Sequence record: PQ724394.1
DNA: 64,000 bases
Reading direction: 5' to 3' (one strand)
Source: a phage
Shown piece after piece: positions 11,872 through 63,922 of the stretch. The translations under genes were made by a program, and so were the position numbers. The stretch's first letter is position 1, and the number at the start of each line of letters is the position of its first letter. The notes below the pieces were generated by a model. That model saw nothing but the letters and a program-made list of their open reading frames with translations, was not told the origin of the DNA and made no database searches.

Positions 11872-14406
11872 ATGATTAACAAATTGGAACTTAGTGAGTT
11901 ACCATTTGTTGACGGCGTACCTGATGCTCCTCAAAAGCGTATCCAATGGATACGCGAGGGTGATTGTATGTCTGCAGCAAAAACAAAATACGGCAATGAA
12001 GGTAATTTGAACGCTGCTGCTTTAGGAGTTCAGAAAAACGTAGAAGCTCTTGATGCCAACGATTTAAAAACTGCTGATAAAGTTAATGAGCTTATAGAAA
12101 ACGTTAATAATATCAATGACGCTTTAGAAATGTCAACAGATATTTCCATCATTCAACAAATAGAGAAAAACCGTGTTGATATTGTAGACCTTAAAAAAGT
12201 CACCGAAGATACAACAGAAAAATTGGACACCTTAACAACCAATTTTGATTTCTTGCGTGAAGATGTTGGATATCATGACCCTTTACAAGATGGGCCTTAT
12301 TTAACTGTACGTGAAAATATTGTTCTTCTTAAAAATGAAATTGGTCACTATGAGGACCAGGATATAAACGGTAATCCTTTACCTCCAGGTGAAACTAGTG
12401 AAGCCACTGGTATAAAACGCCGCATCATGGATAATACCACTGAATTGGTGGACCATCGTCTTCGTATTGATACCCTTGAAAGAAACTATGAAGATTCTGA
12501 TGTTGGGCAATTAGGTATTAAACTAAATGAAATTCGTGCCGAATTAGGACCACATTCTGATACGGTAGGTAAACAACCCGCTTACACCCGAATTTCAGTA
12601 TTAGAAACGGCTGCAGTTAATTTTAATACGGCTATTGACGAAATTAAGGATAATATTGATTTCTCTGGTATGCCTATAAAGGACCGAGTAACTACTTTAG
12701 AAAGCAAAACCTTTACCTTAGAAAATTCAGTTAACGTTGATTTAAAACCTAGAGTAACTTCTATAGAAACTCAAATCGGTTCTGAGTCTGCACCAGCATC
12801 TATTAATGGACGTTTAAGTGGGCTTCGTACCGATGTAAATGATTTAAAAACCGTTGTTGGTAATAGTTCTAGTGAAGGACTTCGTTTCCAGGTTTCCGAT
12901 ATTAATCGACGCCTTGGTAGTGAAGTGTCTCCTGCCGCTGGCACTATTAATAAGCGTTTGAATGATGTTATTATTCAAGCAAACCAATCTACCTCGTCCA
13001 TCCAGGATATTCAGGTAGAAATTGGTAACAACCAATCCGGTATAAAAGGTACTTTGCTTAAGCTCACAAATAAGGTTGACGGAACGAACCCTAACGGAGC
13101 TACCGTAGAAGAACGTGGTCTTATTAATGCGGTTACTTCTTTAGAAACCCAGATGCAAGGTAAATTAGGTGACGCGCCTTCTGATGGTAAACTCTATGCA
13201 CGTCGAAATGCGGCATGGGATGAAGTTGTTAATAATTCCACAGAAATAGAAACCGTTAAAGCCGATTTGGTTGTTACCAATGGTAAAGTGACCGCTTTAA
13301 CTTCCAGAGTAGATGATAATGATACTTCTATTTCATCTCTTAATACTCGCACTACTGCTCTAAATACTTCGGTTGGTGAGATTAAAGCCGATATAGTTTC
13401 TATAAAGGCTAAAGATGTTGAACAGGACGGTCGTTTAACTTCTTTGGAAGAGGCTGATGTTACTATTAACGGTAAAATTGCTGCTCTCGAAACTAAGACA
13501 GATACCACTGATGATGATGTCACAGCACTGGCTTTAGACGTTTCTTCTTTAGAGAACCAATTGACTCCTATAAAAGCCGATATTACCAAAAACAAAGGTG
13601 ATATTGTTGCCTTAACCGGTCGAGTGGCTTCTACTGAAGGCGAAATTACCGCAATTAAAGTTGATACAGCCAAAATTGCTCCTTTGACTACTAGAGTTAC
13701 TACGGCAGAAGGTAAAATCACTACTTTAGAAACAGGGCTTGCCGCTGTTAAAGTCGAATCCGATAAGGTAGCAGGTATTAATACCCGTTTAGGTACGGCA
13801 GAAGATGACATCGGAACACTTGAAACGGGTTTGGCTGAAGTTAAGGGTGAAGCCGATAAAGTAGCTGCTATAGATACCCGTTTGGGTGTTGTTGAAGCTG
13901 AAGTTGGTAAAGTAGCTTCTATAGATACCCGTTTAGGCGATGTTGAAGCTGAAGTCGGTACTCTTGAAACAGATTTATCTACTGTTAAAGGTAAAGTTGG
14001 TACTCTTGAAACAGGTTTGGCTGCCGTTAAAGTCGAATCCGATAAGGTAGCAGGTATTAATACCCGTTTAGGTACGGCAGAAGGTAAAATAACTACCCTT
14101 GAGTCTGGCTTGGCTGCTGTTGAAGTTGAATCAGATAAAGTAGCAGGGATTGATACCCGTTTAGCTACTGTTGAAGGCGAAGTTAGTACTCTTGAAACAG
14201 GTTTAGCTGCTGTTAAAGTTGAATCTGATAAAGTTGCTGACTTAGGAACCCGTTTAACCGCTGCCGAAGGTAAAATTACGGCCTTAGAAACAGAATTATC
14301 TAAACGTCCACCGGTGGCTCCTGCCGCAGACGGACTTCCGTATGTTCTGGTTGATAACGCATGGGTATTATTGTCTGATTTTGTGACTTTAAACTCAGCA
14401 CCATAA
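11872..14406 (+). CDS. wac: fibritin (whisker antigen control), expanded 844-aa form with C-terminal foldon
   Basis: N-terminus LPFVDG motif as in T4 fibritin; long coiled-coil with tandem repeats; C-terminal foldon-like LPYVLVDNAWVLLSDF; T4 fibritin is 487 aa. Confidence 0.8.
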   Translation: MINKLELSELPFVDGVPDAPQKRIQWIREGDCMSAAKTKYGNEGNLNAAALGVQKNVEALDANDLKTADKVNELIENVNNINDALEMSTDISIIQQIEKNRVDIVDLKKVTEDTTEKLDTLTTNFDFLREDVGYHDPLQDGPYLTVRENIVLLKNEIGHYEDQDINGNPLPPGETSEATGIKRRIMDNTTELVDHRLRIDTLERNYEDSDVGQLGIKLNEIRAELGPHSDTVGKQPAYTRISVLETAAVNFNTAIDEIKDNIDFSGMPIKDRVTTLESKTFTLENSVNVDLKPRVTSIETQIGSESAPASINGRLSGLRTDVNDLKTVVGNSSSEGLRFQVSDINRRLGSEVSPAAGTINKRLNDVIIQANQSTSSIQDIQVEIGNNQSGIKGTLLKLTNKVDGTNPNGATVEERGLINAVTSLETQMQGKLGDAPSDGKLYARRNAAWDEVVNNSTEIETVKADLVVTNGKVTALTSRVDDNDTSISSLNTRTTALNTSVGEIKADIVSIKAKDVEQDGRLTSLEEADVTINGKIAALETKTDTTDDDVTALALDVSSLENQLTPIKADITKNKGDIVALTGRVASTEGEITAIKVDTAKIAPLTTRVTTAEGKITTLETGLAAVKVESDKVAGINTRLGTAEDDIGTLETGLAEVKGEADKVAAIDTRLGVVEAEVGKVASIDTRLGDVEAEVGTLETDLSTVKGKVGTLETGLAAVKVESDKVAGINTRLGTAEGKITTLESGLAAVEVESDKVAGIDTRLATVEGEVSTLETGLAAVKVESDKVADLGTRLTAAEGKITALETELSKRPPVAPAADGLPYVLVDNAWVLLSDFVTLNSAP
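13669..14300 (+). repeat. tandem ~90-nt coiled-coil repeat units inside wac
   Basis: Near-identical DNA blocks, e.g. 13725-13800 versus 14005-14080 (gttaaagtcgaatccgataaggtagcaggtattaatacccgtttaggtacggcagaag); protein repeats TLETGLAAVKVESDKVAGINTRLGTAEGKIT. Confidence 0.8.
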
Positions 14407-27523: not shown

Positions 27524-27790
27524 CTATGCAATCTTAACTCGACGGTTGATGATATCACGGAAGTCAATACGATTTTCTTGGATTTTAAGCCAGTTACCAG
27601 ATTTGTCTTTGGTATGGGTAGAATATTCGCCGTTCCACCAGAAGTCGGTTTCATAAGCCAGAGCTTCGTATTTCTTAACCAATGCATTAACTGCATTACC
27701 GTTAGGATTGGAACCATATTTTTCTACCAGAGCTTTGATGTCTTTGTCAAGGTTAGAAAGCGTGGTACGGATAAAGTTTAATTTGTTCAT
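27524..27790 (-). CDS. hypothetical small protein (88 aa) at the 23/24 junction
   Basis: Minus-strand ORF; internal ATG at 27790 preceded by AGGAGA; own sigma70-like promoter upstream. Confidence 0.5.
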   Translation of the reverse strand: MNKLNFIRTTLSNLDKDIKALVEKYGSNPNGNAVNALVKKYEALAYETDFWWNGEYSTHTKDKSGNWLKIQENRIDFRDIINRRVKIA

Positions 27791-27819
27791 TTTTAATCTC
27801 CTCATGTTTTGATAGGACT

Positions 27820-27849
27820 ATAGTAACACGTGGGAACCTTGCTGTAAAC
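27820..27849 (-). promoter_or_regulatory. sigma70-like early promoter candidate (GTTTAC-N18-TACTAT)
   Basis: Minus strand: GTTTAC (27849-27844), 18-nt spacer, TACTAT (27825-27820); same architecture recurs at 31845-31874 and 46843-46872. Confidence 0.45.
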
Positions 27850-27855
27850 AACTTT

Positions 27856-31844: not shown

Positions 31845-31874
31845 ATAGTAACATGAGAATTTTAACTTGTAAAC
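31845..31874 (-). promoter_or_regulatory. sigma70-like early promoter candidate (GTTTAC-N18-TACTAT)
   Basis: Minus strand: GTTTAC (31874-31869), 18 nt, TACTAT (31850-31845), about 29 nt upstream of the ATG at 31816. Confidence 0.45.
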
Positions 31875-31884
31875 AGGAGATTTT

Positions 31885-33390
31885 ATGTCAGACAATCCAT
31901 TATACGGGCATGACGGTAGAGGTCACTTTAGAGGCGTATCATTAGTAGAAGTTCCGCAGGATAAATCATTGGAATTTGCAGACATACTCACTAGTGAAAG
32001 CACCTTAGACCCTACTATGTTGGATTCTTCTCAAAGTTATGGACTTGAATTTATAAAACAAGCTTCTAGGGAAGGCGCGTTGGCCCATTTAGGTATAACT
32101 AATGAGATGCTAACACCTGGTACTGAAGGTCCACAAGGCCCTAAAGGAGACCCAGGGCCGCAAGGTATTCAAGGTAACCCGGGTCCTAAAGGAGAAAAGG
32201 GCGAACCAGGACCAGCAGGTCCAGAAGGTCCTAAAGGAGACCCGGGTTCACCAGGAAAAGAAGGCCCTCAGGGTTTACAAGGGGCCCAAGGAGAAGTAGG
32301 ACCGCAAGGACCACAAGGTCCTATAGGCCCAGCAGGTTTGGTGTGGAAGGGAGCCTGGGATGAATCTACCCAATACTCTAAAGACGATGCAGTTGGATAC
32401 CAGGGAGCTTCTTATTTTTGCATCAGTTCTAATACAGGAACAATACCTCCTAGCGAAGGAGTTTGGGCGCTATTGGCTAATATCGGTGCACCAGGTCCTC
32501 AAGGACCAACCGGCCCAACCGGCCCTCAAGGTCCACAAGGCGCGCCAGGCCAAGATGGTAATGGGTTTATCTGGGCCGGAAACTGGGCCCTTGGTTCGTC
32601 TTATTATATAAACGATTTGGTCCAGTGCGAAGGGTCTTCTTGGATTTGTATCCAGGATAATATAGCAAATAATGATAGTTATCCCGGGAGTGGAGACCTG
32701 TGGGCCGATTATTGGAATTTATTTGTAAAAGAAGGGCGTCCAGGAAATCCCGGAGAAGATGGTGCACCTGGAGAGCAAGGCGCCCAAGGACCGCAAGGCG
32801 ACCCGGGTCCTAAAGGTGAAAAGGGCGAACCTGGGCCACAAGGTATTCAAGGTCCTATAGGGCCCGCAGGTGCTCCTGGTAAAGATGCAGTATTTGATGT
32901 TGATTCTTTAACCCAGTCTCAATTAAAATCTTTATATGATAAACTTTTCCCATTCTATCCACCTAGATATTGGAAAGGCTCTTTAAGATTTGATAAGCCT
33001 CTGAACACTTCAGAGTGGAAGGAAATACGTTTATGGGACCTTAATATGGTTCTTCATGTTCGTATGTATTCGTCTTTAGGCATCCATATAAGGGCTACTA
33101 ATGCGGGTCTTACCAACAGACTTGATATTAAAAGATTTACCAACTATGAAAACGGGATAGAATGCGCCAACTGGAGTAATGTTCTGTGGTCCTCAACTCC
33201 TGAATTATTCGACGATTTGGCTTATTCTAGTGCAAGACAATTTAACCGTTACGAAATATTTGACCGTGATACTAGAAAATACTACACTGTATCTGTGTTT
33301 ATTGTAGGCGGCCCTCTTAATACGACTACAGATATCCCTGTTGAAGTTTTATTTTCTGTCGAAGACCATACTAATATGAGCCCATTTTAA
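31885..33390 (+). CDS. collagen-like repeat protein with two tail-fibre-type W/Y/C-rich modules and a globular C-terminal domain
   Basis: 501 aa; three Gly-X-Y runs (about 24, 9 and 17 triplets) separated by two ~45-aa modules ([30 protein letters not shown] and [30 protein letters not shown]); GGAG ribosome-binding site. Confidence 0.75.
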
Positions 33391-34539: not shown

Positions 34540-35952
34540 TTAATAAACGTAATCGTAAATAATTCCAGCATCCAAAGCGGTTCTGTGAATAATTCTACCA
34601 TTACGAGATTCCTGTACATCAACCTCAGGATAATCGGCTACCATTTTTTGAAGGGTATAACGATGGAGATAATATTCACTATCAGGTTCGTCAGTTTTCC
34701 AGTCTTTGCCTTCAAGGGTCATTTTCTGAATTTCGTCCATAACCCACCAACCACACCAAATATAAGCTGAATTACGAACTGGTAGCGGATGAACGTAAGG
34801 TAGTTCGCCCTCTGGTTCAGGAGCTACTTTAGCCGTAATTGTTACATTACCTGTTTTTTTGACAGTCACAGGATTATAGTCGGTAGCCGAAACAACAGCA
34901 GAAACTTCAATAACCTGTGAACCTTCAGCGCTTGTGTCAATTACTAATGTATCCGTAGCACCCACAACAGGTGAACCATCTTTCTTCCAAGAATAAGCAA
35001 AAGTAGCACCACTAGGCGCACCGACTACCGTGGCTTTAAAAGAAGCCGGGATTCCTTCAGAGACAGTAATAGAAGCAGGCGTTAAATTAACAGAAACACC
35101 TGTCATAGTCTTTTTAGTAATTGTTACACTTCCTGTTTTGGTAACGGTTAAATCATTATAATCCGTACCTTTTAGGAGTACCGAAACTTCAATAGAGTAA
35201 GAACCTATTGTAGACGTATCAACAGCAAGAGTATTACTGCTTTCGCCCGGAATAATAGAACCATCTTTCTTCCAAGAATAAGTTGCATTTACGCCGGAAG
35301 GAGCACCAACTACATCCGCTTTAAACTGTGCAGATGAGTCTTTCTCTGTACTAATTGAGGCGGGCGTTAAAGTAACAGAAACACCTGATATAGTTTTCTT
35401 AACAAAAGTTACCGCAACACCTTTAGTAGCGGTACCCGGGTCATATTCAGGGGCGGTAACAGTAACTTCACAGTTCAACGTGTAATTTGCTTCTGCTGCT
35501 TCGGTTACAGTAATAGTTTTACCAGTTTGTCCAGAGATTACGCTGGTGTTACGTTTCCAAACATAAGCAATTGTTGCGCCTGCAGGTGCACCCGTCACGT
35601 TAGCAGTAACAACTTGAGATTGGCCAACTTCTTTAGAAACAGAAATAGGGTCTAAGGCCAAAGAAATAGACATGGTCTTATTAGCTACGGTAACTTCAAA
35701 AGTATCTTCAGCTACCTCAGGTTCGCCTTCAGCCGGAGTAGAAGTTGCTACTACTTTTAAAACTTTCTTACCTGCAGGTGAAGCACCTGTATATTTCAAA
35801 ACATTGGTTGCTTCTGGATTAGAAGCACCATCAATAGACCATACATATGTAATGGTTCCTTCTACAGCTGCACCTGTTGCGGTAGCAGTGTAGTTAGCAC
35901 TTTCGCCTATTTTAATAGACGCTGTGCCGGCTATACTTACAGTAAAAGCCAT
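34540..35952 (-). CDS. hoc: Hoc-like outer capsid decoration protein with four Ig-like repeats and C-terminal capsid-binding-type module
   Basis: 470 aa; tandem ~95-aa Thr/Ser/Val-rich repeats; C-terminal module shared with the 288-aa paralogue; position between inh and the accessory cassette as for T4 hoc. Confidence 0.75.
   Translation of the reverse strand: MAFTVSIAGTASIKIGESANYTATATGAAVEGTITYVWSIDGASNPEATNVLKYTGASPAGKKVLKVVATSTPAEGEPEVAEDTFEVTVANKTMSISLALDPISVSKEVGQSQVVTANVTGAPAGATIAYVWKRNTSVISGQTGKTITVTEAAEANYTLNCEVTVTAPEYDPGTATKGVAVTFVKKTISGVSVTLTPASISTEKDSSAQFKADVVGAPSGVNATYSWKKDGSIIPGESSNTLAVDTSTIGSYSIEVSVLLKGTDYNDLTVTKTGSVTITKKTMTGVSVNLTPASITVSEGIPASFKATVVGAPSGATFAYSWKKDGSPVVGATDTLVIDTSAEGSQVIEVSAVVSATDYNPVTVKKTGNVTITAKVAPEPEGELPYVHPLPVRNSAYIWCGWWVMDEIQKMTLEGKDWKTDEPDSEYYLHRYTLQKMVADYPEVDVQESRNGRIIHRTALDAGIIYDYVY
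34815..35685 (-). repeat. tandem Ig-like domain repeats within hoc
   Basis: Repeated protein units (KKTISGVSVTLTPASIS..., KKTMTGVSVNLTPASIT...) with corresponding DNA similarity. Confidence 0.7.
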
Positions 35953-46814: not shown

Positions 46815-46842
46815 AATGTTCTCCTCATGTTTGTGTAAGGTA

Positions 46843-46872
46843 ATAGTACCACATCCTTGTGGCGTTGTAAAC
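46843..46872 (-). promoter_or_regulatory. sigma70-like early promoter candidate (GTTTAC-N18-TACTAT)
   Basis: Minus strand: GTTTAC (46872-46867, overlapping the first Alt-like gene stop), 18 nt, TACTAT (46848-46843). Confidence 0.45.
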
Positions 46873-48995
46873 TACATTTTGAATTTATTTGATAAAGAAG
46901 AGATGTCCAAAGATGCAGCAAGGATTTCCATAGCCTCATTACTTTCTGAAACAGATTCTGAAACTAGGAATTCTTTAAACCCATTCATCAATTTAACTTC
47001 ACCGGTTTCCATCAGATGGTCGCCATCGTAAACGGATTCGCTGAGTTCTGAAGGAGATGTCACTGTAGCTTCCATAAGGTATTTGTGAGATACTCTATCA
47101 TTCATAGCAAAAGCCGCTACTTTATCAACCTTCAACAATAACCCGCGCGGAAGGATAATTTCCGCTTCTTCGGCATATTCTGTAAGGTCGCCAGGAGCGA
47201 TAACTTTAACTGCTTCAGCACCTCGAATAACCATACCAATTTCAGCAATCCTGTCTGCAGGGCCTTCAGGTGCAATTGGATTACCAAACTCGTCTTCTTC
47301 CCATTCTACCTCTTCGTCATCGACTTCACCTACGTCAGATGAACTACCACTGGCTAATTTAAACAACTCATCAGCGGAGGATAAAGAACCTTCATCACCG
47401 ACAAAAACTGCTTGGTTGTCGAGGGCCATATAATTTTTACCAAATTCGCCAAAGATATTAGGCTTTAATGAAGCGGACACAAAGTTCTTAAAGTAAAAGG
47501 TTTTGTTATCAATATTATGGCGCAGAATTTTGTATGGTAAATCCTGACCACGATACAAAATAGTACCCTTAGGAAGTTTAATACCCTTGGTAAATGCCGA
47601 GTCTAAATCCTTAATCAATTTAATAGCTGTTGTATTGTTTTCGGATTCAGGTTTACCTAAAAGGAATAAGTTCATAGGAGCATATTCAGCCGCACAATAT
47701 TCAATAATGGCATTACTTTCGTCTTTGGTCAAGCCCTTAGGTTTAATGAGCTCGCCTGAATAAGCATATGCATCGCTAATAGAATCGTTAATCAGTTTAT
47801 AAACGGCTTCCATAGCGAAAGCAATTCGAGATGCTTTCTCTGAAGGAGACCCCTGAAAACGGGCACTCAGGTTATTAACAATTCTCTTAATAATATCCAG
47901 ACTATTGGTAGTATTGATTTGAGAAAGACCGCTTAAAAGTCTATCGACTTCCGTATTAAAAAATGCCATATTATTAGAGTAAATTTCAAACCCTTGTTTA
48001 TCTCTATTAGCATAATTTAGTTTAAATTTACTATCAGTCATTAAAGCGTGCGTGAGAGCAATGGTGTATCTAAAGTTGGCAAGGTCCTCACTCTTAGATT
48101 TAAACTGAGAGGCCTGTCGCATTTTAGTAATAGAACCTTTTTTAAAGTTCTGGCTAATCTGCTCAATACCTTCGTTCTCAGGGCCTTCGGCCGAGTGAAC
48201 AGGGACAGAAGCTTCAAACTCGTTATAAATCTGCAATTCTTTAGGTGATAAAGTTTCGGGTTCGGCAGTAGAATACTGCGCCGCTGCAGCCATACGACGG
48301 GAAATCTTAGTACGAGAAATAACAGCCTTATCGGTACGTTTCTCTTCAACCTGTGCAATAGATGCCGCTACGGCTTCTACTTTACTTACGGCCTGGCCGG
48401 TTTTCTTAGAAACATAAACTTCACCGACTTTAGACTCAACCTTGGTATAAAGGTCTGCATCAATTTCAGGCATACCCTTGATATCTTCGATATTAGAACC
48501 ACGACGTACTAAAAGAACGTAGGTATGTTTACCACTAAACTGGAACATATCATCGACAACTTTAAACTTACCACCGGTACGTGCCATCACCAAACGAGCT
48601 AATACACGCTGAACGGTAGGACCCTTACCTTTCATTTTCTTGGTAGGGAAACGGAACAAAACTGCATCCATTTTAAGTTTGTTTACTTGTTCGTATACGG
48701 TATCGAAAATAGTATTCAGTGTACCAAGTGGGTCAGAACCAAGCCCACCTTTGAGTTCAGCCGGAGCACCCTTGCTAGACAAACTCATTAAAATAATATG
48801 AACGTATTTGTCGCCAGGCTTAACCATTTTAATAGCGTCTCCTTGAGACGCATAAGATACCATACGAGCAACCAGGTTATCATTACCTGGTGCTTGGATA
48901 GAGAAAATCTGTGGGATACCTGAGCCTGGCTTAAGATTTGTTACTGGATAGTTTTTAGCTGAATCACTATCAAAAACTTCGTTTAAATTTTCCAT
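46872..48995 (-). CDS. alt: Alt-like ADP-ribosyltransferase paralogue 1
   Basis: 707 aa; R-S-E motifs in the C-terminal half (LYRGQ, FVSAS, EAEIILPRG); position between gene 54 and DNA ligase as for T4 alt (682 aa). Confidence 0.7.
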   Translation of the reverse strand: MENLNEVFDSDSAKNYPVTNLKPGSGIPQIFSIQAPGNDNLVARMVSYASQGDAIKMVKPGDKYVHIILMSLSSKGAPAELKGGLGSDPLGTLNTIFDTVYEQVNKLKMDAVLFRFPTKKMKGKGPTVQRVLARLVMARTGGKFKVVDDMFQFSGKHTYVLLVRRGSNIEDIKGMPEIDADLYTKVESKVGEVYVSKKTGQAVSKVEAVAASIAQVEEKRTDKAVISRTKISRRMAAAAQYSTAEPETLSPKELQIYNEFEASVPVHSAEGPENEGIEQISQNFKKGSITKMRQASQFKSKSEDLANFRYTIALTHALMTDSKFKLNYANRDKQGFEIYSNNMAFFNTEVDRLLSGLSQINTTNSLDIIKRIVNNLSARFQGSPSEKASRIAFAMEAVYKLINDSISDAYAYSGELIKPKGLTKDESNAIIEYCAAEYAPMNLFLLGKPESENNTTAIKLIKDLDSAFTKGIKLPKGTILYRGQDLPYKILRHNIDNKTFYFKNFVSASLKPNIFGEFGKNYMALDNQAVFVGDEGSLSSADELFKLASGSSSDVGEVDDEEVEWEEDEFGNPIAPEGPADRIAEIGMVIRGAEAVKVIAPGDLTEYAEEAEIILPRGLLLKVDKVAAFAMNDRVSHKYLMEATVTSPSELSESVYDGDHLMETGEVKLMNGFKEFLVSESVSESNEAMEILAASLDISSLSNKFKM

Positions 48996-54372: not shown

Positions 54373-54567
54373 TTATCCTCGCTTCAAACATTTGATTACA
54401 GATAATTCAGAACCCATACGAACGTCTTCAGTTCCATCGACCCACAGGACGGTGTAGGCTTCTTTAATAGTAGCATTACCTAATTTAAAACCAGGCAAGA
54501 CCTTAGAAATCATTCCAGGAATACCTACACCTTTTAACTGGACGGTTTGTGATAAGAATAGTTGCAT
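54373..54567 (-). CDS. hypothetical protein (64 aa)
   Basis: Minus-strand ORF; start overlaps the upstream ORF stop. Confidence 0.4.
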   Translation of the reverse strand: MQLFLSQTVQLKGVGIPGMISKVLPGFKLGNATIKEAYTVLWVDGTEDVRMGSELSVIKCLKRG

Positions 54568-54854
54568 TAGAACCTCATCTGAAATCCATGTGATTTAACA
54601 TTACCGCCGTAGATGTCAGAAGTATTGACTTCGCGGGCAGCGCTAGGGTCGATGTTAATATCATGGTTGAGCTTAGTGATTGCTAGGGTGTCACGACCAT
54701 TGACTGTACGGAATTCTACTGGACAAACCACATCAGCATAAGCCTTAATGGATTCACGAGTAGGCTGTTTGTCGGCAGGAACATCTTTACCTGCCTTAGA
54801 GAAAACAACTTCACAGAAATTTTTACGAGTATCGAAATAAGTGGTCATAAACAT
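54567..54854 (-). CDS. hypothetical protein (about 95 aa)
   Basis: Start placed at internal ATG 54854 (GAGGA upstream) so the terminator hairpin at 54870-54885 lies outside the coding region. Confidence 0.45.
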   Translation of the reverse strand: MFMTTYFDTRKNFCEVVFSKAGKDVPADKQPTRESIKAYADVVCPVEFRTVNGRDTLAITKLNHDINIDPSAAREVNTSDIYGGNVKSHGFQMRF

Positions 54855-54869
54855 AATATTTTCCTCAAA

Positions 54870-54885
54870 GGAGGCCGAAGCCTCC
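54870..54885 (-). terminator. UUCG hairpin terminator after the 121-aa gene
   Basis: Plus ggaggc-cgaa-gcctcc; on minus an A-run, the hairpin, then a T-run. Confidence 0.6.
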
Positions 54886-54895
54886 ATTTTTAAGA

Positions 54896-55261
54896 TTAGA
54901 TATCAAATTCATTCAGAACTACATCAAAGATTGCTTCCAGGTGTTCAGGTTTAGCACGGTTGCTCAGGATGTGACGAATCCAGGTTTTAACCAGAAGCTT
55001 ACGATTATCACCGTTCCAGCAAGGATGGGTACCTAAATCACGTTGACGGAAATCATCATCCAAAGCGATTTTAAAAGTAGAACCTTCCATAGTGATTGAA
55101 ACCGTGATACCATTTTCAAAGCGCATATAAACGTAGTTAGGAGTCATGCACTGTTCGATTTCGCACACTGTGCTGTTGTTGTGTTTCCACAGGCAAATAA
55201 CTTCAGAAGAACCAGCAATACCGTTAGAAACATATTTACGTTCGAAGTTGATGTAGTTCAT
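54896..55261 (-). CDS. hypothetical protein (121 aa), leader shared with the adjacent upstream gene
   Basis: Minus-strand ORF preceded by a ~40-nt leader identical to that of the 55336-55704 gene; GGAG ribosome-binding site. Confidence 0.5.
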   Translation of the reverse strand: MNYINFERKYVSNGIAGSSEVICLWKHNNSTVCEIEQCMTPNYVYMRFENGITVSITMEGSTFKIALDDDFRQRDLGTHPCWNGDNRKLLVKTWIRHILSNRAKPEHLEAIFDVVLNEFDI

Positions 55262-55310
55262 TTTATTCTCCAGTTTGTTTTCGTATTATTTGGTACAGGT
55301 CTATAATAAC
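55259..55310 (-). repeat. repeated 5' leader/promoter module, copy A
   Basis: cattttattctccagtttgttttcgtattatttggtaca identical to 55703-55741; contains GTTTAC-N17-TATTAT on minus and a hairpin ggtacaggt...acctgtacc (55291-55321). Confidence 0.7.
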
Positions 55311-55335
55311 ACAACCTGTACCAAAGTAAACCGTT

Positions 55336-55704
55336 TTATGCAACTTTAATCCAATTATCTAAATTTAATTCACCTTTGGCTTTCATTTTTTCGATCAGGT
55401 CATCTGCAGTTATACGACCATTTTGATACCATGTAACATCTTCAGAATAACCAGTTTCTTCATCTTCATAGGTCTTACAACGAATCTTACCGGTTATGAT
55501 AGTTTTCAGTTCGTAGGTATCACCGGTAAAAAAGTTTGTTACCAAAATTTTCCAAGAGAAGTCATCAGAAGGACCTTCAGGAGTCATACAACCTACAAAT
55601 TCAAATTGTTCTTTGTACAAGCGCCATTGCATCTCTTTAGTTTCAATAGCTTTATAACCGTCGTGGTCTTTACATTTGATATATGAGTTAAGATTGATTT
55701 TCAT
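55336..55704 (-). CDS. hypothetical protein (122 aa)
   Basis: Minus-strand ORF with the same leader as the 54896-55261 gene; weak similarity between the two proteins (CMTP motif). Confidence 0.5.
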   Translation of the reverse strand: MKINLNSYIKCKDHDGYKAIETKEMQWRLYKEQFEFVGCMTPEGPSDDFSWKILVTNFFTGDTYELKTIITGKIRCKTYEDEETGYSEDVTWYQNGRITADDLIEKMKAKGELNLDNWIKVA

Positions 55705-55775
55705 TTTATTCTCCAGTTTGTTTTCGTATTATTTGGTACATGTCTATAGTATCATGCCTACCGGAGATGTATACC
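55703..55775 (-). repeat. repeated 5' leader/promoter module, copy B
   Basis: Same ~40-nt leader; minus strand GTATAC-N17-TACTAT upstream. Confidence 0.7.
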
Positions 55776-55800
55776 CTTTTTTTAAGATTTAGAAACAAAA

Positions 55801-55822
55801 ATGGGACTCCGAAGAGTCCCAT
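55801..55822 (-). terminator. UUCG hairpin terminator
   Basis: Plus atgggactc-cgaa-gagtcccat; on minus followed by a T-rich run. Confidence 0.6.
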
Positions 55823-55825
55823 AAC

Positions 55826-55987
55826 TTATGCAATAACTTTACCGAAGCAAGCAGCATCTGCACGCAATACTGCACGAGCACGAGCTTGAAGCTTATCAAC
55901 TACCTGATTGATACGCTTGTTAGACGCACGCTTGTAACCAGCGCGTTTAGAGGTTCCGTCAACTACTTTAACTTCTTTCTTAGCCAT
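55826..55987 (-). CDS. candidate small basic protein (53 aa), not in the ORF track
   Basis: ATG at 55987; translation MAKKEVKVVDGTSKRAGYKRASNKRINQVVDKLQARARAVLRADAACFGKVIA; followed by a terminator hairpin. Confidence 0.35.
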   Translation of the reverse strand: MAKKEVKVVDGTSKRAGYKRASNKRINQVVDKLQARARAVLRADAACFGKVIA

Positions 55988-60961: not shown

Positions 60962-61455
60962 ACACCAAGCTCCTTATAAAGTTCTTCACGGCAGGTTTTA
61001 AGGATTTTACCAGTTTCATAAGCCGCACTTTCAGAAACATCACCAAGTGTAGCAGCAGCTTGCATTTGGCCATGGCGCTTAGCCGCATATTCAAAACTTT
61101 TTACCAGCTCACGAATACGTTCTTTTTCTTCGTGAAGTGATTGGTTTTCTTTATAGCACGCCGTAACATCTAAGATTGAATTCCACACATCAGAAGGAAT
61201 AGGCTCGGACAATTTCAACACTCGGCTCGGGAAATCATTCCATGGGGCATAGTATTCAACTTCTGTAATAACTCCACCTTTACATTCTGTAATAAAAAAT
61301 CGAGCTTTACCTTCCAAAGGTGTTTTACGGCAAGAACCAATTCGGGCCAGCTTTTGGAAGAATTCGTCTTTACACTTCATGATATTATTAGCGTTCTCAA
61401 CATACCATAATATTTTCATGTCCAATTCCTCAATTTTTATAATCCGTAGGAGCAT
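60958..61455 (-). CDS. hypothetical protein (165 aa)
   Basis: ATGA overlap with the downstream gene; no recognised motif. Confidence 0.45.
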
Positions 61456-61482
61456 TATACTCTGCTCCCAAGAGTTTGTAAA

Positions 61483-61590
61483 CTACTTTCCAAAAATACC
61501 ATTCATACACATGCTGAACACGATACCAAAGCAAAAACATGCAGCGCCGAATTTAAAAACATCCCACCCATCGATACAGGCTTCAATCAT
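61483..61590 (-). CDS. candidate hydrophobic micro-protein (35 aa) coupled to the o-spanin gene
   Basis: ATG overlaps the o-spanin stop (ATGA); translation MIEACIDGWDVFKFGAACFCFGIVFSMCMNGIFGK. Confidence 0.3.
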   Translation of the reverse strand: MIEACIDGWDVFKFGAACFCFGIVFSMCMNGIFGK

Positions 61591-62227: not shown

Positions 62228-62715
62228 TTGGTAATAATCTCGATGATGTCATCACGTGACAGGGAGTTGATAAGAACCGTTTTAGGGTTTTCACACTGGA
62301 TTTTATACGTTTCGAACATCACGCACAATTCTTCAGCGGTATGGTAAGGGCTCGAAATGCCAAGGCGATTAAACTTATCGCTTAATGGGTCGCAAATCAA
62401 ATAGAATGTGATTCCAGCGATTTTGACATTAGGCTGACTGATATTAATGAATACCTCAGCATCATACTTGGAAAGGTTGTTTTGGAGAAACTCAACCATA
62501 GAGTTAACAGCTTCCGGCATGGCTTCACGCTTTTCTTCTGCATAACGGGTAGAGTATTCTTTTTGCTTAATTTTCTTTTTAGCATTTTTAGCTAAAGTAA
62601 CACGAAGATCGGTTAGGTACCCTACTGCACGAGAACCTTTAAAAACTTGGATACCGTCAGTAGAGTCACCAAAAGCTTTAACAACCATTTCGTTGGTAAT
62701 CATTTGCATATTCAT
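62215..62715 (-). CDS. hypothetical protein (166 aa), possibly Alc-like by position
   Basis: Adjacent to and downstream of rnlA, where T4 carries alc (167 aa); size and synteny only. Confidence 0.35.
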   Translation of the reverse strand: MNMQMITNEMVVKAFGDSTDGIQVFKGSRAVGYLTDLRVTLAKNAKKKIKQKEYSTRYAEEKREAMPEAVNSMVEFLQNNLSKYDAEVFINISQPNVKIAGITFYLICDPLSDKFNRLGISSPYHTAEELCVMFETYKIQCENPKTVLINSLSRDDIIEIITKCLN

Positions 62716-62773
62716 TTTGTTTTCTCCTCATTAGTTGGTAAGTCTATACTAACACATCATGAGGAGATGTAAA

Positions 62774-63922
62774 CTACTCTATCACAATTTCTTTCAAATA
62801 TTTTTCAGGGATTTGGGCCTTATGATTTTTCAAGAACACAGAGTTAATCTGGTCCACGACTGTATCATAATTAATACCGTCTACGTACGCCTGCATAAGA
62901 ATAGAGAACAGCCCTGGGAAGTCTTTGAGGATTAACTGACCGGTAACAGCGTAGTCTTTACGGTCACGACCCTTGAGCTGAGAATATGCTGCTTCTAACA
63001 AAGCCAAGGACTGTTCTAAGTAGTCTAAATGGATACGTTCAAATGCATTGATTTTCTCGATAGCAAATGAATCGGTGCTGAACAAACCTCGGAGGTCATC
63101 AGTTCCACCAGCCACTACAACTTCAAACAAACGTTCGTTATTGTTAATGGAATCTTTGGTATGATGCAGTGCGCTATACCAAGCGGTTTTGAGTTTAAAG
63201 AACGTGCCATCTTTAAGTACAAAGATAAAGCCTTCAATACCCTCTTGTTTACGGATATTGTCAACAAAATCACCTTCAGAGAGTTCATAGCTTTTAACCA
63301 AATGCTTACGCAGAGCGCCATCTTTAAACAGTTCAGCATAAGGGATATACTCACCCGTTTCGTTATTACGAACGTTCAGTAAGATAAGGTTTGTTTCTTG
63401 GTAAGCCAGCACAATACGGTTAGTAGGCGAAACATACTCGAGGTTGCATGTGTAGCCTGCTTTAGTAATTTCTTCTAAACGAGCAGCGAAGGCCTCGTTT
63501 TCAGGGAGTCGAAGGAAACGTAAAGAATCATGTACCATCGACGAATGGATAGAGCCTTTAGATTTAACAGAAAGATATTGTCTGTCCATGAAGGTAGAAA
63601 TCAAGGAACCATCTTCCTTAGCCATTACGAGGTCGATATTTTCTTGTGATAAATCTAAACCAATAGTCAACGGGTTTTCATCGAGATTAAAGAACTTTTG
63701 CATAGGACGAGCAGCGATACGTACCGGACCATTCTCGTCCATTTCAAACATAATGCCTCGGCACTCTAGTGCGCCGTCTTCCAACCAATCACTGTATGAT
63801 GCATAGTTATAACTAAAGATGCGATAGTTGACTCCTAGAGCACTCTGGAAGTCTTTAAAGAAGAACTTAGATTTAGTTGAGTTTTTAACCAAAGTCATCA
63901 AGTTATCATATAATTCAATCAT
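62774..63922 (-). CDS. rnlA: RNA ligase 1 (Rnl1)
   Basis: 382 aa; YRIFSYNYASYSDW, ECRGIMFEMD and lysine motif KEDGSL match T4 Rnl1. Confidence 0.9.
   Translation of the reverse strand: MIELYDNLMTLVKNSTKSKFFFKDFQSALGVNYRIFSYNYASYSDWLEDGALECRGIMFEMDENGPVRIAARPMQKFFNLDENPLTIGLDLSQENIDLVMAKEDGSLISTFMDRQYLSVKSKGSIHSSMVHDSLRFLRLPENEAFAARLEEITKAGYTCNLEYVSPTNRIVLAYQETNLILLNVRNNETGEYIPYAELFKDGALRKHLVKSYELSEGDFVDNIRKQEGIEGFIFVLKDGTFFKLKTAWYSALHHTKDSINNNERLFEVVVAGGTDDLRGLFSTDSFAIEKINAFERIHLDYLEQSLALLEAAYSQLKGRDRKDYAVTGQLILKDFPGLFSILMQAYVDGINYDTVVDQINSVFLKNHKAQIPEKYLKEIVIE

Follow-up and report, generated by a model that had tools for sequence, protein, structure and literature searches.

Promoter-early stem-loop (PeSL) cassettes have been described for T4-type phages (Arbiol, Comeau, Kutateladze, Adamia and Krisch, 2010, PMC2839356; Comeau, Arbiol and Krisch, 2014, PMC4122927). 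Their stem-loops fall into five subclasses and commonly overlap the -10 box, and a Shine-Dalgarno sequence and an ATG stand at the 3' end (PMC2839356); in T-even phages, the promoter has the form TTTACW-N17-TAYWAT (PMC4122927). PeSLs are concentrated in hyperplastic regions, where they mediate deletion, insertion and replacement of the open reading frames (ORFs) between them (PMC2839356, PMC4122927). Here, two adjacent early modules were analysed in a stretch of 64,000 nucleotides (nt) from phage sequence record PQ724394.1 (hereafter, the window). The source phage is a Dhakavirus: over the 1.6 kb around the modules, identity was 98.5% with Escherichia phage dhaeg and 95.6% with IME08, which both belong to the Dhakaviruses (Straboviridae, T4-like). 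The gene order on the minus strand is rIII, 30.9, 30.8, 30.7, 30.6. Genes 30.8 and 30.7, whose products are unrelated, are probably driven by two tandem PeSL-type early cassettes in the hyperplastic rIII-to-30 region; the identity of the two leaders would be the outcome of recombination, and the resulting repeats would bracket a replaceable 30.8.

The modules upstream of 30.7 (copy A) and 30.8 (copy B) share the 41-nt word TGTACCAAATAATACGAAAACAAACTGGAGAATAAAATGAA, which occurs exactly twice in the window (Table 1). In shuffles of the window (n = 100), zero matches to this word were expected, even at 3 mismatches, and no further leader copy was found in the window with up to 3 mismatches allowed. 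The perfect identity begins 1 nt before the predicted start site and takes in 36 nt of leader and the first 5 nt of the coding sequence, ATGAA, which bears out the initial annotation, where about 40 nt upstream of both ATGs had been called identical. Upstream of this core, the similarity carries on, with 3 mismatches, across the 3' part of the -10 box, and ungapped extension gave 55 nt (52/55 identical) at a spacing of 443. The 55 nt of copy B hold the 3' part of the -10 box and the predicted start site, followed by the 35-nt leader with its Shine-Dalgarno sequence and by ATGAA. Beyond consensus, A and B could not be aligned in their -35 boxes and spacers. Duplication extends from the -10 box as far as ATGAA, and the earlier description of a duplicated promoter/leader module holds for this part and fails for the -35 box and spacer.

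Each module has its own promoter (P30.7 for A, P30.8 for B), and the sigma70-like elements that had been proposed (GTTTAC or GTATAC, 17 nt, TATTAT or TACTAT) were read for both copies. Compared with the T-even PeSL form, promoter A (TTTACT-17-TATTAT) matched at 12/12 positions and promoter B (TATACA-17-TACTAT) at 11/12. Upstream of promoter B, there is an A-rich tract at 55775-55790 (A/T-rich tract before the -35 box: TTTTTGTTTCTAAATCTTAAAAAAAGG); the corresponding tract of A (ATTAAAGTTGCATAAAACG) holds the 30.8 stop codon, 5 nt from the -35 box. In both copies, GGAG is followed after 6 nt by ATG. Promoter A was kept in every genus sampled, and the P30.8 -35 box reads GTGTAC or GTTTAC in relatives. 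T4 early 'uber' promoters consist of UP, -35, TGn and -10 elements (Hinton, 2010, PMC2988021), and both promoters of the window show the same order, with an UP-like A-rich tract, the -35 box (GTTTAC in A), a 17-nt spacer, TGn and a TAnnAT-type -10 box; the T4 orthologues are early, T4 30.7 and 30.8 being so at both the RNA and the protein level (PMC9697503 supplement). The pair differs from T4 early promoters in the -35 box of copy B (GTATAC), and in that the shared sequence reaches far past the promoter consensus into the leader. At 30.8/30.7, the T4 GenBank records annotate only coding sequences and no mapped promoters, and a literature text search on 30.7/30.8 returned nothing relevant on experimentally mapped T4 promoters.

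The strong cleavage consensus of the endoribonuclease RegB with S1 is GG*AGRAYARAA (Durand et al., reviewed in Uzan and Miller, 2010, PMC3014915). The Shine-Dalgarno region of both genes, GGAGAATAAAA, matched this consensus at 11/11 positions, and these two were the only matches in the window. In the predicted folds, the GGA of the putative site is unpaired in the promoter-initiated leader and also in read-through RNA. The promoter-initiated leaders folded at -0.7 and -0.9 kcal/mol (RNA fold), less strongly than the shuffles, and the 35-nt leaders are predicted to be unstructured; the leader is low in sequence complexity, and an Rfam search with it gave nothing above E = 0.95 and no matching family. 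RegB homologues, 58-60% identical to that of T4, were found in the Dhakaviruses MN04 and VR5. The two sites resemble known RegB/S1 targets in their 11/11 match, in their location in the unstructured intergenic initiation region of an early gene and in the presence of a RegB homologue in the genus; they differ in that the T4 sites are cleaved, whereas those of the window are candidates, by sequence match.

The stem-loop part of cassette B is an intrinsic terminator past 30.9 (-15.9 kcal/mol, z = -5.0), which was recognised as such by the terminator scan and is conserved in T4, Mosigvirus and Klebsiella phages. With this canonical terminator upstream, 30.8 would need promoter B. Between 30.8 and 30.7, no terminator was found, only the hairpin round the -10 box of A, which is the stem-loop part of cassette A. 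In its core, GGTACAGGT (55322-55314) pairs with ACCTGTACC (55300-55292) over 9 bp, the inverted repeat in which the promoter of copy A had been placed by the initial annotation, and the stem extends to 12 bp with TTT/AAA. As RNA, hairpin A reaches -18.8 kcal/mol (z = -4.8), and it can form only in RNA begun upstream of P30.7; copy B has no significant hairpin (z = -1.2). Hairpin A did not qualify as an intrinsic terminator: the stem is followed by AAAUAAUACG with no U-run, and it was unlisted by the terminator scan. Nor did it qualify in the window as a hairpin that hides the ribosome-binding site: in the read-through fold, the GGAG of 30.7 is unpaired and the 3' arm stops 17 nt before it. Hairpin A may act in the window as an attenuator, as 3'-end protection for the 30.8 message or in some other way.

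All the sequence-level features of PeSL cassettes were found at this locus: an A/T-rich tract with an upstream stop codon, a sigma-70 early promoter, a stem-loop upstream of or over the -10 box (the 12-bp hairpin in A, the upstream terminator hairpin in B), a Shine-Dalgarno sequence and ATG at the 3' end, and a site of indel and replacement. The modules lie between small non-essential ORFs of a hyperplastic region, and neighbouring modules bracket genes that are replaced or deleted among close relatives. The 30.8/30.7 pair would fit the published model as a local case of PeSL cassettes. It differs from the described cases, by degree, in several respects: the exact stretch is much longer (41 nt) and lies in the transcribed leader, whereas the crossovers of Arbiol et al. 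lie in the A/T-rich region; the two copies per genome form a local pair and not a dispersed family; the hairpin is without G/C tracts; and the cassettes carry an exact RegB site, known here from the sequence only. The cassette pair was not found described in the text of the PeSL literature (figures and supplements were outside that search).

Table 1. Position of the cassettes, their parts and the neighbouring genes in the window
Feature	Position	Strand	Details
Gene 30.9 homologue, 53 amino acids (aa)	55826..55987	-	ORF; IME08 annotation 30.9; phrog_1427; last gene of the upstream transcription unit
Intrinsic terminator past 30.9	55796..55822	-	AUGGGACUC-UUCG-GAGUCCCAU then UUUUU; stem-loop part of cassette B; terminator scan
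Promoter B (P30.8)	55746..55774	-	-35 GTATAC 55774-55769, 17 nt, TGa, -10 TACTAT 55751-55746
Repeat copy B, 55 nt	55700..55754	-	perfect core 55700-55740; predicted start site G ~55739
Shine-Dalgarno of 30.8, GGAGAATAAAA	55704..55714	-	exact match to the strong RegB/S1 consensus
Gene 30.8, 122 aa	55336..55704	-	PF06019; gene between both repeats, exchangeable
Promoter A (P30.7)	55303..55331	-	-35 GTTTAC 55331-55326, 17 nt, TGt, -10 TATTAT 55308-55303; begins 5 nt past the 30.8 stop codon
Hairpin round the -10 box of P30.7	55289..55325	-	UUUGGUACAGGU / ACCUGUACCAAA; stem-loop part of cassette A
Repeat copy A, 55 nt	55257..55311	-	perfect core 55257-55297; predicted start site G ~55296
Shine-Dalgarno of 30.7, GGAGAATAAAA	55261..55271	-	exact match to the strong RegB/S1 consensus
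Gene 30.7, 121 aa	54896..55261	-	PF06919; 89-99% conserved among coliphage genera
Hairpin between 30.7 and the 30.6 homologue	54870..54885	-	GGAGGC-UUCG-GCCUCC; -15.1 kcal/mol, z = -3.0

Replacement of the gene between the cassettes was seen by comparison with relatives. Across Dhakavirus, Mosigvirus, Gaprivervirus and Tequatrovirus, gp30.7 keeps 89-99% identity, while gp30.8 occurs in two forms, ~38% identical to each other. The form of the window is widespread (58-94% in Mosigvirus, Gaprivervirus, Karamvirus, Klebsiella, Serratia and Winklervirus phages), that of T4 is the divergent one, and both occur within Dhakavirus between the same flanks. When the window was compared with JS98, identity was 96-100% up to ATGAAAA, fell to ~50% within the coding sequence of 30.8 and returned to 100% at the TTTAC of P30.7. 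Among the 25 best Dhakavirus records, 7 have a 722-bp arrangement and 18 a 685-bp arrangement. Between the window and JS98, 30.7 differs at 3/366 positions; the figure for IME08, which carries the same 30.8 allele as the window, is 11/366. The 30.8 allele type therefore does not follow the flanks.

Deletion was found outside Dhakavirus. A Klebsiella-type sequence (L056, IMGVR_UViG_2974754850; 1272-1960) is without 30.8 and a 170-aa gene, both present in its sisters L055 (258-1960) and L024; its P30.8 module runs straight into the 30.7 ATG, and the crossover lies within CGGAGAATAAA, the core common to both cassettes. The Yersinia phage phiR1-RT type (L022 / L054) has no 30.8, and its 30.9 is followed directly by terminator, promoter and 30.7. 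The slot holds 0 genes in phiR1-RT, 1 in the coliphage genera, 2 in Karamvirus, phage Ursula and the Klebsiella phages, and 3 in Winklervirus. Deletion and replacement between the cassettes are documented in these relatives, from which we infer them for the source phage. The arrangement recalls integrons and their attC sites, with a single ORF of promoterless size between short repeated sites and alternative alleles in one slot; unlike integrons, it has no integrase and no attC fold, general homologous recombination is expected, and each cassette brings its own promoter.

The distribution of the shared leader bears on its origin. T4 has both genes, both promoters and the P30.7 hairpin, and its two leaders have only GGAGAATAAAATGAA in common, a core that is conserved across genera and matches the RegB site. 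The 55-nt module was found in 46 phage records, all Dhakavirus-type, at no more than 2 places per genome; as there is no third copy per genome or in the window, the leader is not a dispersed mobile element. Global module identity matrices were weakly informative (shuffle background 0.57), and the longest word common to both modules was the clearer measure: 41 nt in Dhakavirus, 28 nt in Klebsiella phage L024 (GGTTACTATAGACCTGTACCACCCAAAC, a different sequence), 19 nt in Citrobacter phage Ursula, 18 nt in Gaprivervirus, 13 nt in Karamvirus and 11 nt in T4. Outside Dhakavirus and the Klebsiella phage, this word is 8-19 nt long, no longer than the common core save in phage Ursula, with a background of ~15 nt from the ribosome-binding core. 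Since the shared words are genus-specific, neighbouring modules appear to have been homogenised repeatedly and independently, i.e. by concerted evolution through recombination and not by common descent or a class-wide consensus.

For Dhakavirus, the identity is most likely non-ancestral and arose by non-reciprocal recombination between the neighbouring cassettes. In Dhakavirus, Mosigvirus and the Klebsiella phage, copy B has the TGTACC... that forms the 3' arm of hairpin A but no 5' arm to pair with it, and this partnerless arm argues that the TGTACC part was copied from A to B. Substitutions in a single copy were found in IME08 (G to A), in the QL01 type (G to T) and in VR5 (altered Shine-Dalgarno region), which argues that homogenisation is not continuous. 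Another apparent module hybrid was observed in L051 (~1535-1600), where a 30.7-type promoter half is joined to a 30.8-type leader (aactcaataaccaatacggtaacggag) at 30.7.

On the favoured explanation, host sigma-70 RNA polymerase would start at each promoter ~7 nt past the -10 box, at the G of TGTACC, and the two mRNAs would share an unstructured leader of 35 nt as well as a GGAG site, 6 nt from the AUG, that reproduces the strong RegB target exactly. Both messages would be translated right after infection and then jointly shut off by a cut inside GGAG. Cassette B would be insulated from upstream transcription by the canonical terminator; cassette A would have no room for a terminator, and its hairpin would wrap its own -10 box and form only in RNA reading through from 30.8. 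The identity would have been born in the Dhakavirus lineage by the non-reciprocal recombination proposed above, and the direct repeats of 41-55 bp, 443 bp apart, would offer short homology that T4 recombination could use to delete, insert or replace the gene between the cassettes.

Several observations weigh against this explanation. The -35 box of promoter B is weak (GTATAC), and a generic sigma-70 scan listed A and not B, because this box is the poorer match. Hairpin A, being without a U-run, is not a canonical terminator. The flanks of the window and JS98 are ~100% identical for hundreds of bases, so the swap crossovers cannot be placed in the cassettes as opposed to further out in 30.9 or 30.7. 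When a synthetic deletion junction (30.9 end, cassette B, 30.7 start) was searched, all 25 listed matches covering the full query kept 30.8 (spans of 685 or 722 bp), and no 30.8-deleted Dhakavirus was among them. The direction of copying appears clear only for the TGTACC part, and the A-rich middle of the leader is about equally near to the leader of 30.8 in Mosigvirus (76%) and to that of 30.7 in Gaprivervirus (75%), in a comparison of A-rich 20-mers. Finally, the start sites and the role of RegB in the source phage are predictions from the nucleotide sequence.

The hairpin of cassette A was compared at the orthologous P30.7 of other genera, where the -10 box lies inside one of at least six stems that are unrelated in sequence and have folding energies of about -17 to -23 kcal/mol. 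The stem classes are GGTACAGGT/ACCTGTACC (T4, Dhakavirus, Mosigvirus, Gaprivervirus), GGTGAGAGTC/GACTCTCACC (Winklervirus), GTGAGATAAC/GTTATCTCAC (Serratia phage 4S), GGTGTAGGAGTA/TACTCTTACACC (L045), GCTGATTGAGTGT/ACACTCAATCAGC (L053) and GGGTGGT.CTGGGT/GACCTG.TACCACCC (Klebsiella phage). Karamvirus (L023, 1425-1512) and phage Ursula (L021, 1425-1512) have CUCCGUUGUAU/AUACAACGGAG, a type also present in L057 (1525-1612), whose stem carries compensatory changes (CCGAGGUUU/AAACCUCGG). For pair counting, the stems were aligned with MAFFT, and a 1-nt gap in the T4/Dhakavirus stem was moved by script into the loop beforehand; the column count left out the L052/L053 and Klebsiella stem classes, which have other pairing registers. 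In the four classes of one register, 86% of the cells were paired, as against 34-41% when the partner was slid by 1-3 columns, and 6 columns were altered on both sides. By this comparison, the P30.7 hairpin is kept by compensatory changes across genera. The single-sided stem variants (L034, L043, L045, L052, L055) were G.U on the sense strand in 5/5 cases and A.C in none, and point to selection on the sense RNA, i.e. on read-through transcripts from upstream; a sample of five makes this no more than suggestive.

In T4, hairpins at genes e, soc, 49 and I-TevI hide the ribosome-binding site in read-through RNA and hold an internal promoter (PMC3014915). The P30.7 hairpin is similar in having a promoter inside a hairpin that is foldable only in read-through RNA, and at the orthologous P30.7 of Karamvirus, Ursula and Winklervirus the likeness extends to a 3' arm that covers GGAG. 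An anti-Shine-Dalgarno CUCC in or before the P30.7 promoter pairs with the GGAG of 30.7 in Ursula, Karamvirus, L057 and Winklervirus. In the first three, the whole GGAG is hidden in read-through RNA (z = -5.3 to -6.6) and the promoter-initiated leader is unfolded; in Winklervirus (L020, 1430-1512), GGAG is hidden by an outer helix. The window differs from the T4 cases in that the 3' arm falls short of GGAG by the distance given above, and in that the internal promoter is early (sigma-70) and not late. We propose tentatively that the -10-box hairpin could be a conserved sense-RNA element that separates read-through RNA from promoter-initiated RNA and that, together with the identical leaders, would make 30.8/30.7 a self-contained slot, insulated on both sides, into which any gene might be dropped via the repeats. 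With such an element, some genera may hide the ribosome-binding/RegB site of 30.7 in read-through RNA, and the T4/Dhakavirus class may attenuate read-through or protect the 3' end of 30.8.

Other early promoter/leader modules were seen on the minus strand of the window. At 62706-62785, the spacer of a T4-type early promoter (GTTTAC...TAGTAT), UCUCCUCAU, can pair over 9 bp with the ribosome-binding site that lies downstream, AUGAGGAGA; the hairpin so formed encloses the -10 box (-17.4 kcal/mol, z = -2.0), and read-through RNA would hide the ribosome-binding site, which promoter-initiated RNA would not. At 61425-61490, the -10 box lies inside a GGGAGCA/UGCUCCU hairpin (z = -2.55), and the module at 46815-46880 has CCACA/UGUGG between the boxes. 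Further modules lie at 27785-27855 and 31845-31873. Those at 27797, 46820 and 62723 have 76-79% in common over 33 nt (family D7).

Identical leaders might also be held so by purifying selection on a shared cis-acting RNA, e.g. an operator for one translational regulator or small RNA, so that recombination would be unneeded. The segment at issue for a leader-binding protein or RNA is the 20-nt AAATAATACGAAAACAAACT. The perfect identity does coincide with the transcribed leader, and the core GGAGAATAAAATGAA, kept across genera, matches the RegB site. However, the leader differs beyond the 15-nt core in every other genus, it is unstructured and of low complexity with no Rfam family match, and the one-copy changes in IME08, the QL01 type and VR5 are uncompensated; moreover, selection alone would not drive two unrelated ancestral leaders to 41/41 identity. 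We consider this account unlikely.

A Campbell-type scar is similarly doubtful. Here, a small circle carrying 30.8 and one cassette would have recombined into the resident 30.7 leader by the PeSL mini-circle route and left a leader copy at either end of the insert, with no gene conversion between two resident cassettes. Integration of a circle by a single crossover yields direct repeats flanking exactly one gene, PeSL mini-circles were detected by inverse polymerase chain reaction in RB49 and phi1 (PMC2839356), and two 30.8 alleles do occupy the same frame. Yet 30.8 fills the slot in almost every genus, even where long repeats are lacking, so it was not newly inserted in Dhakavirus, and the -35 box and spacer of promoter B are orthologous to those of Mosigvirus. 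This account also overlaps with the favoured explanation, as replacement could run by excision followed by integration.

It was further considered that the whole gene with its leader had been tandemly duplicated and that the proteins had diverged past recognition, the leader staying identical. The 121-aa and 122-aa ORFs, present as initially annotated, are adjacent, on the same strand and of near-equal length, and both proteins contain CMTP (residues 38-41 and 39-42). Against this, BLASTP of gp30.7 with gp30.8 aligned 9/28 residues at E = 0.039, the proteins fall into separate Pfam (PF06919 for gp30.7, PF06019 for gp30.8) and PHROG families, and profile-profile comparison with hhalign (two 9-sequence alignments) gave a probability of 0.13%; by these comparisons, no homology was detectable, and T4 gp30.8 is without the CMTP motif. 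As the proteins are unrelated, the pair is not a diverged gene duplication, and a paralogous pair by tandem duplication was rejected on these figures. The leaders argue in the same direction: T4, Mosigvirus and Gaprivervirus own both genes and yet have differing leaders, and a neutral 36-nt leader cannot stay 100% identical while the coding sequences lose all similarity. Since the leaders of T4 and other genera differ outside the 15-nt ribosome-binding core, the 100% leader identity cannot share its date with an ancient gene duplication, which is left highly improbable.

Chance, or a generic early promoter/ribosome-binding consensus, could draw on the likeness of the other early modules of the window (76-79% over 33 nt), but it was ruled out by the shuffle expectation of zero matches and by the comparison of promoter pairs (95% over 55 nt for this pair vs ~77% over 33 nt for the others), the identical part being mostly leader, for which there is no class-wide consensus.

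With recombination between PeSL-type cassettes as the preferred explanation, the claims of the initial annotation can be put in place. Of its two proposals, reuse of a promoter cassette was essentially right, 30.8 and 30.7 each having their own T4-type early promoter and one common leader, and duplication and divergence of a gene plus leader was not supported, given the unrelated families and the differing leaders of other genera. The proteins had been called weakly similar: strong similarity is indeed lacking, and the weak similarity is absent too. The PeSL/RegB framework and the dimorphic, exchangeable 30.8 had been missed, and the restriction of the identity to Dhakaviruses refines the initial account.

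As regards the genes themselves, no known function is attached to the family match of either gp30.7 or gp30.8, and a PDB search gave no relatives for either protein. The next gene after 30.7 is the 30.6 homologue, which has a GAGG ribosome-binding site and is without its own promoter. For the 106-aa ORF listed at 54567-54887, the true start is probably further in, at the ATG after GAGGAAAATATT (54854-54887 region): residues 1-11 are encoded over the UUCG hairpin, and the match to PHROG runs from residue 12.

Repeats of another kind were observed elsewhere in the window. At 13607-14281 and 32114-32885, there are tandemly arrayed units of ~93 nt (5 copies, 60-79%) and coding repeats of the collagen-like Gly-X-Y kind (GGTCCACAAGGC...), which presumably lie inside structural genes (families D1, D4, D5). 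At 34835-35412, several direct repeats of 51-68 nt, with a spacing of 282-285 nt and 75-80% identity (families D6, D8, D11, D20), suggest that a domain of ~95 aa has been duplicated within a structural gene.

For T4-type phages, the 30.8/30.7 locus would be a clean, well-bounded natural case of accessory early gene exchange: two regulatory cassettes, apparently equalised by recombination, bracket one gene with two very different alleles inside one genus, and elsewhere another genus has lost genes between the same two cassettes. The exact RegB target in both leaders suggests that 30.8 and 30.7 are switched on and off jointly. The picture of T4 gene regulation and genome plasticity is unchanged; to the published model, the locus adds a case, together with the covariation of the hairpin.

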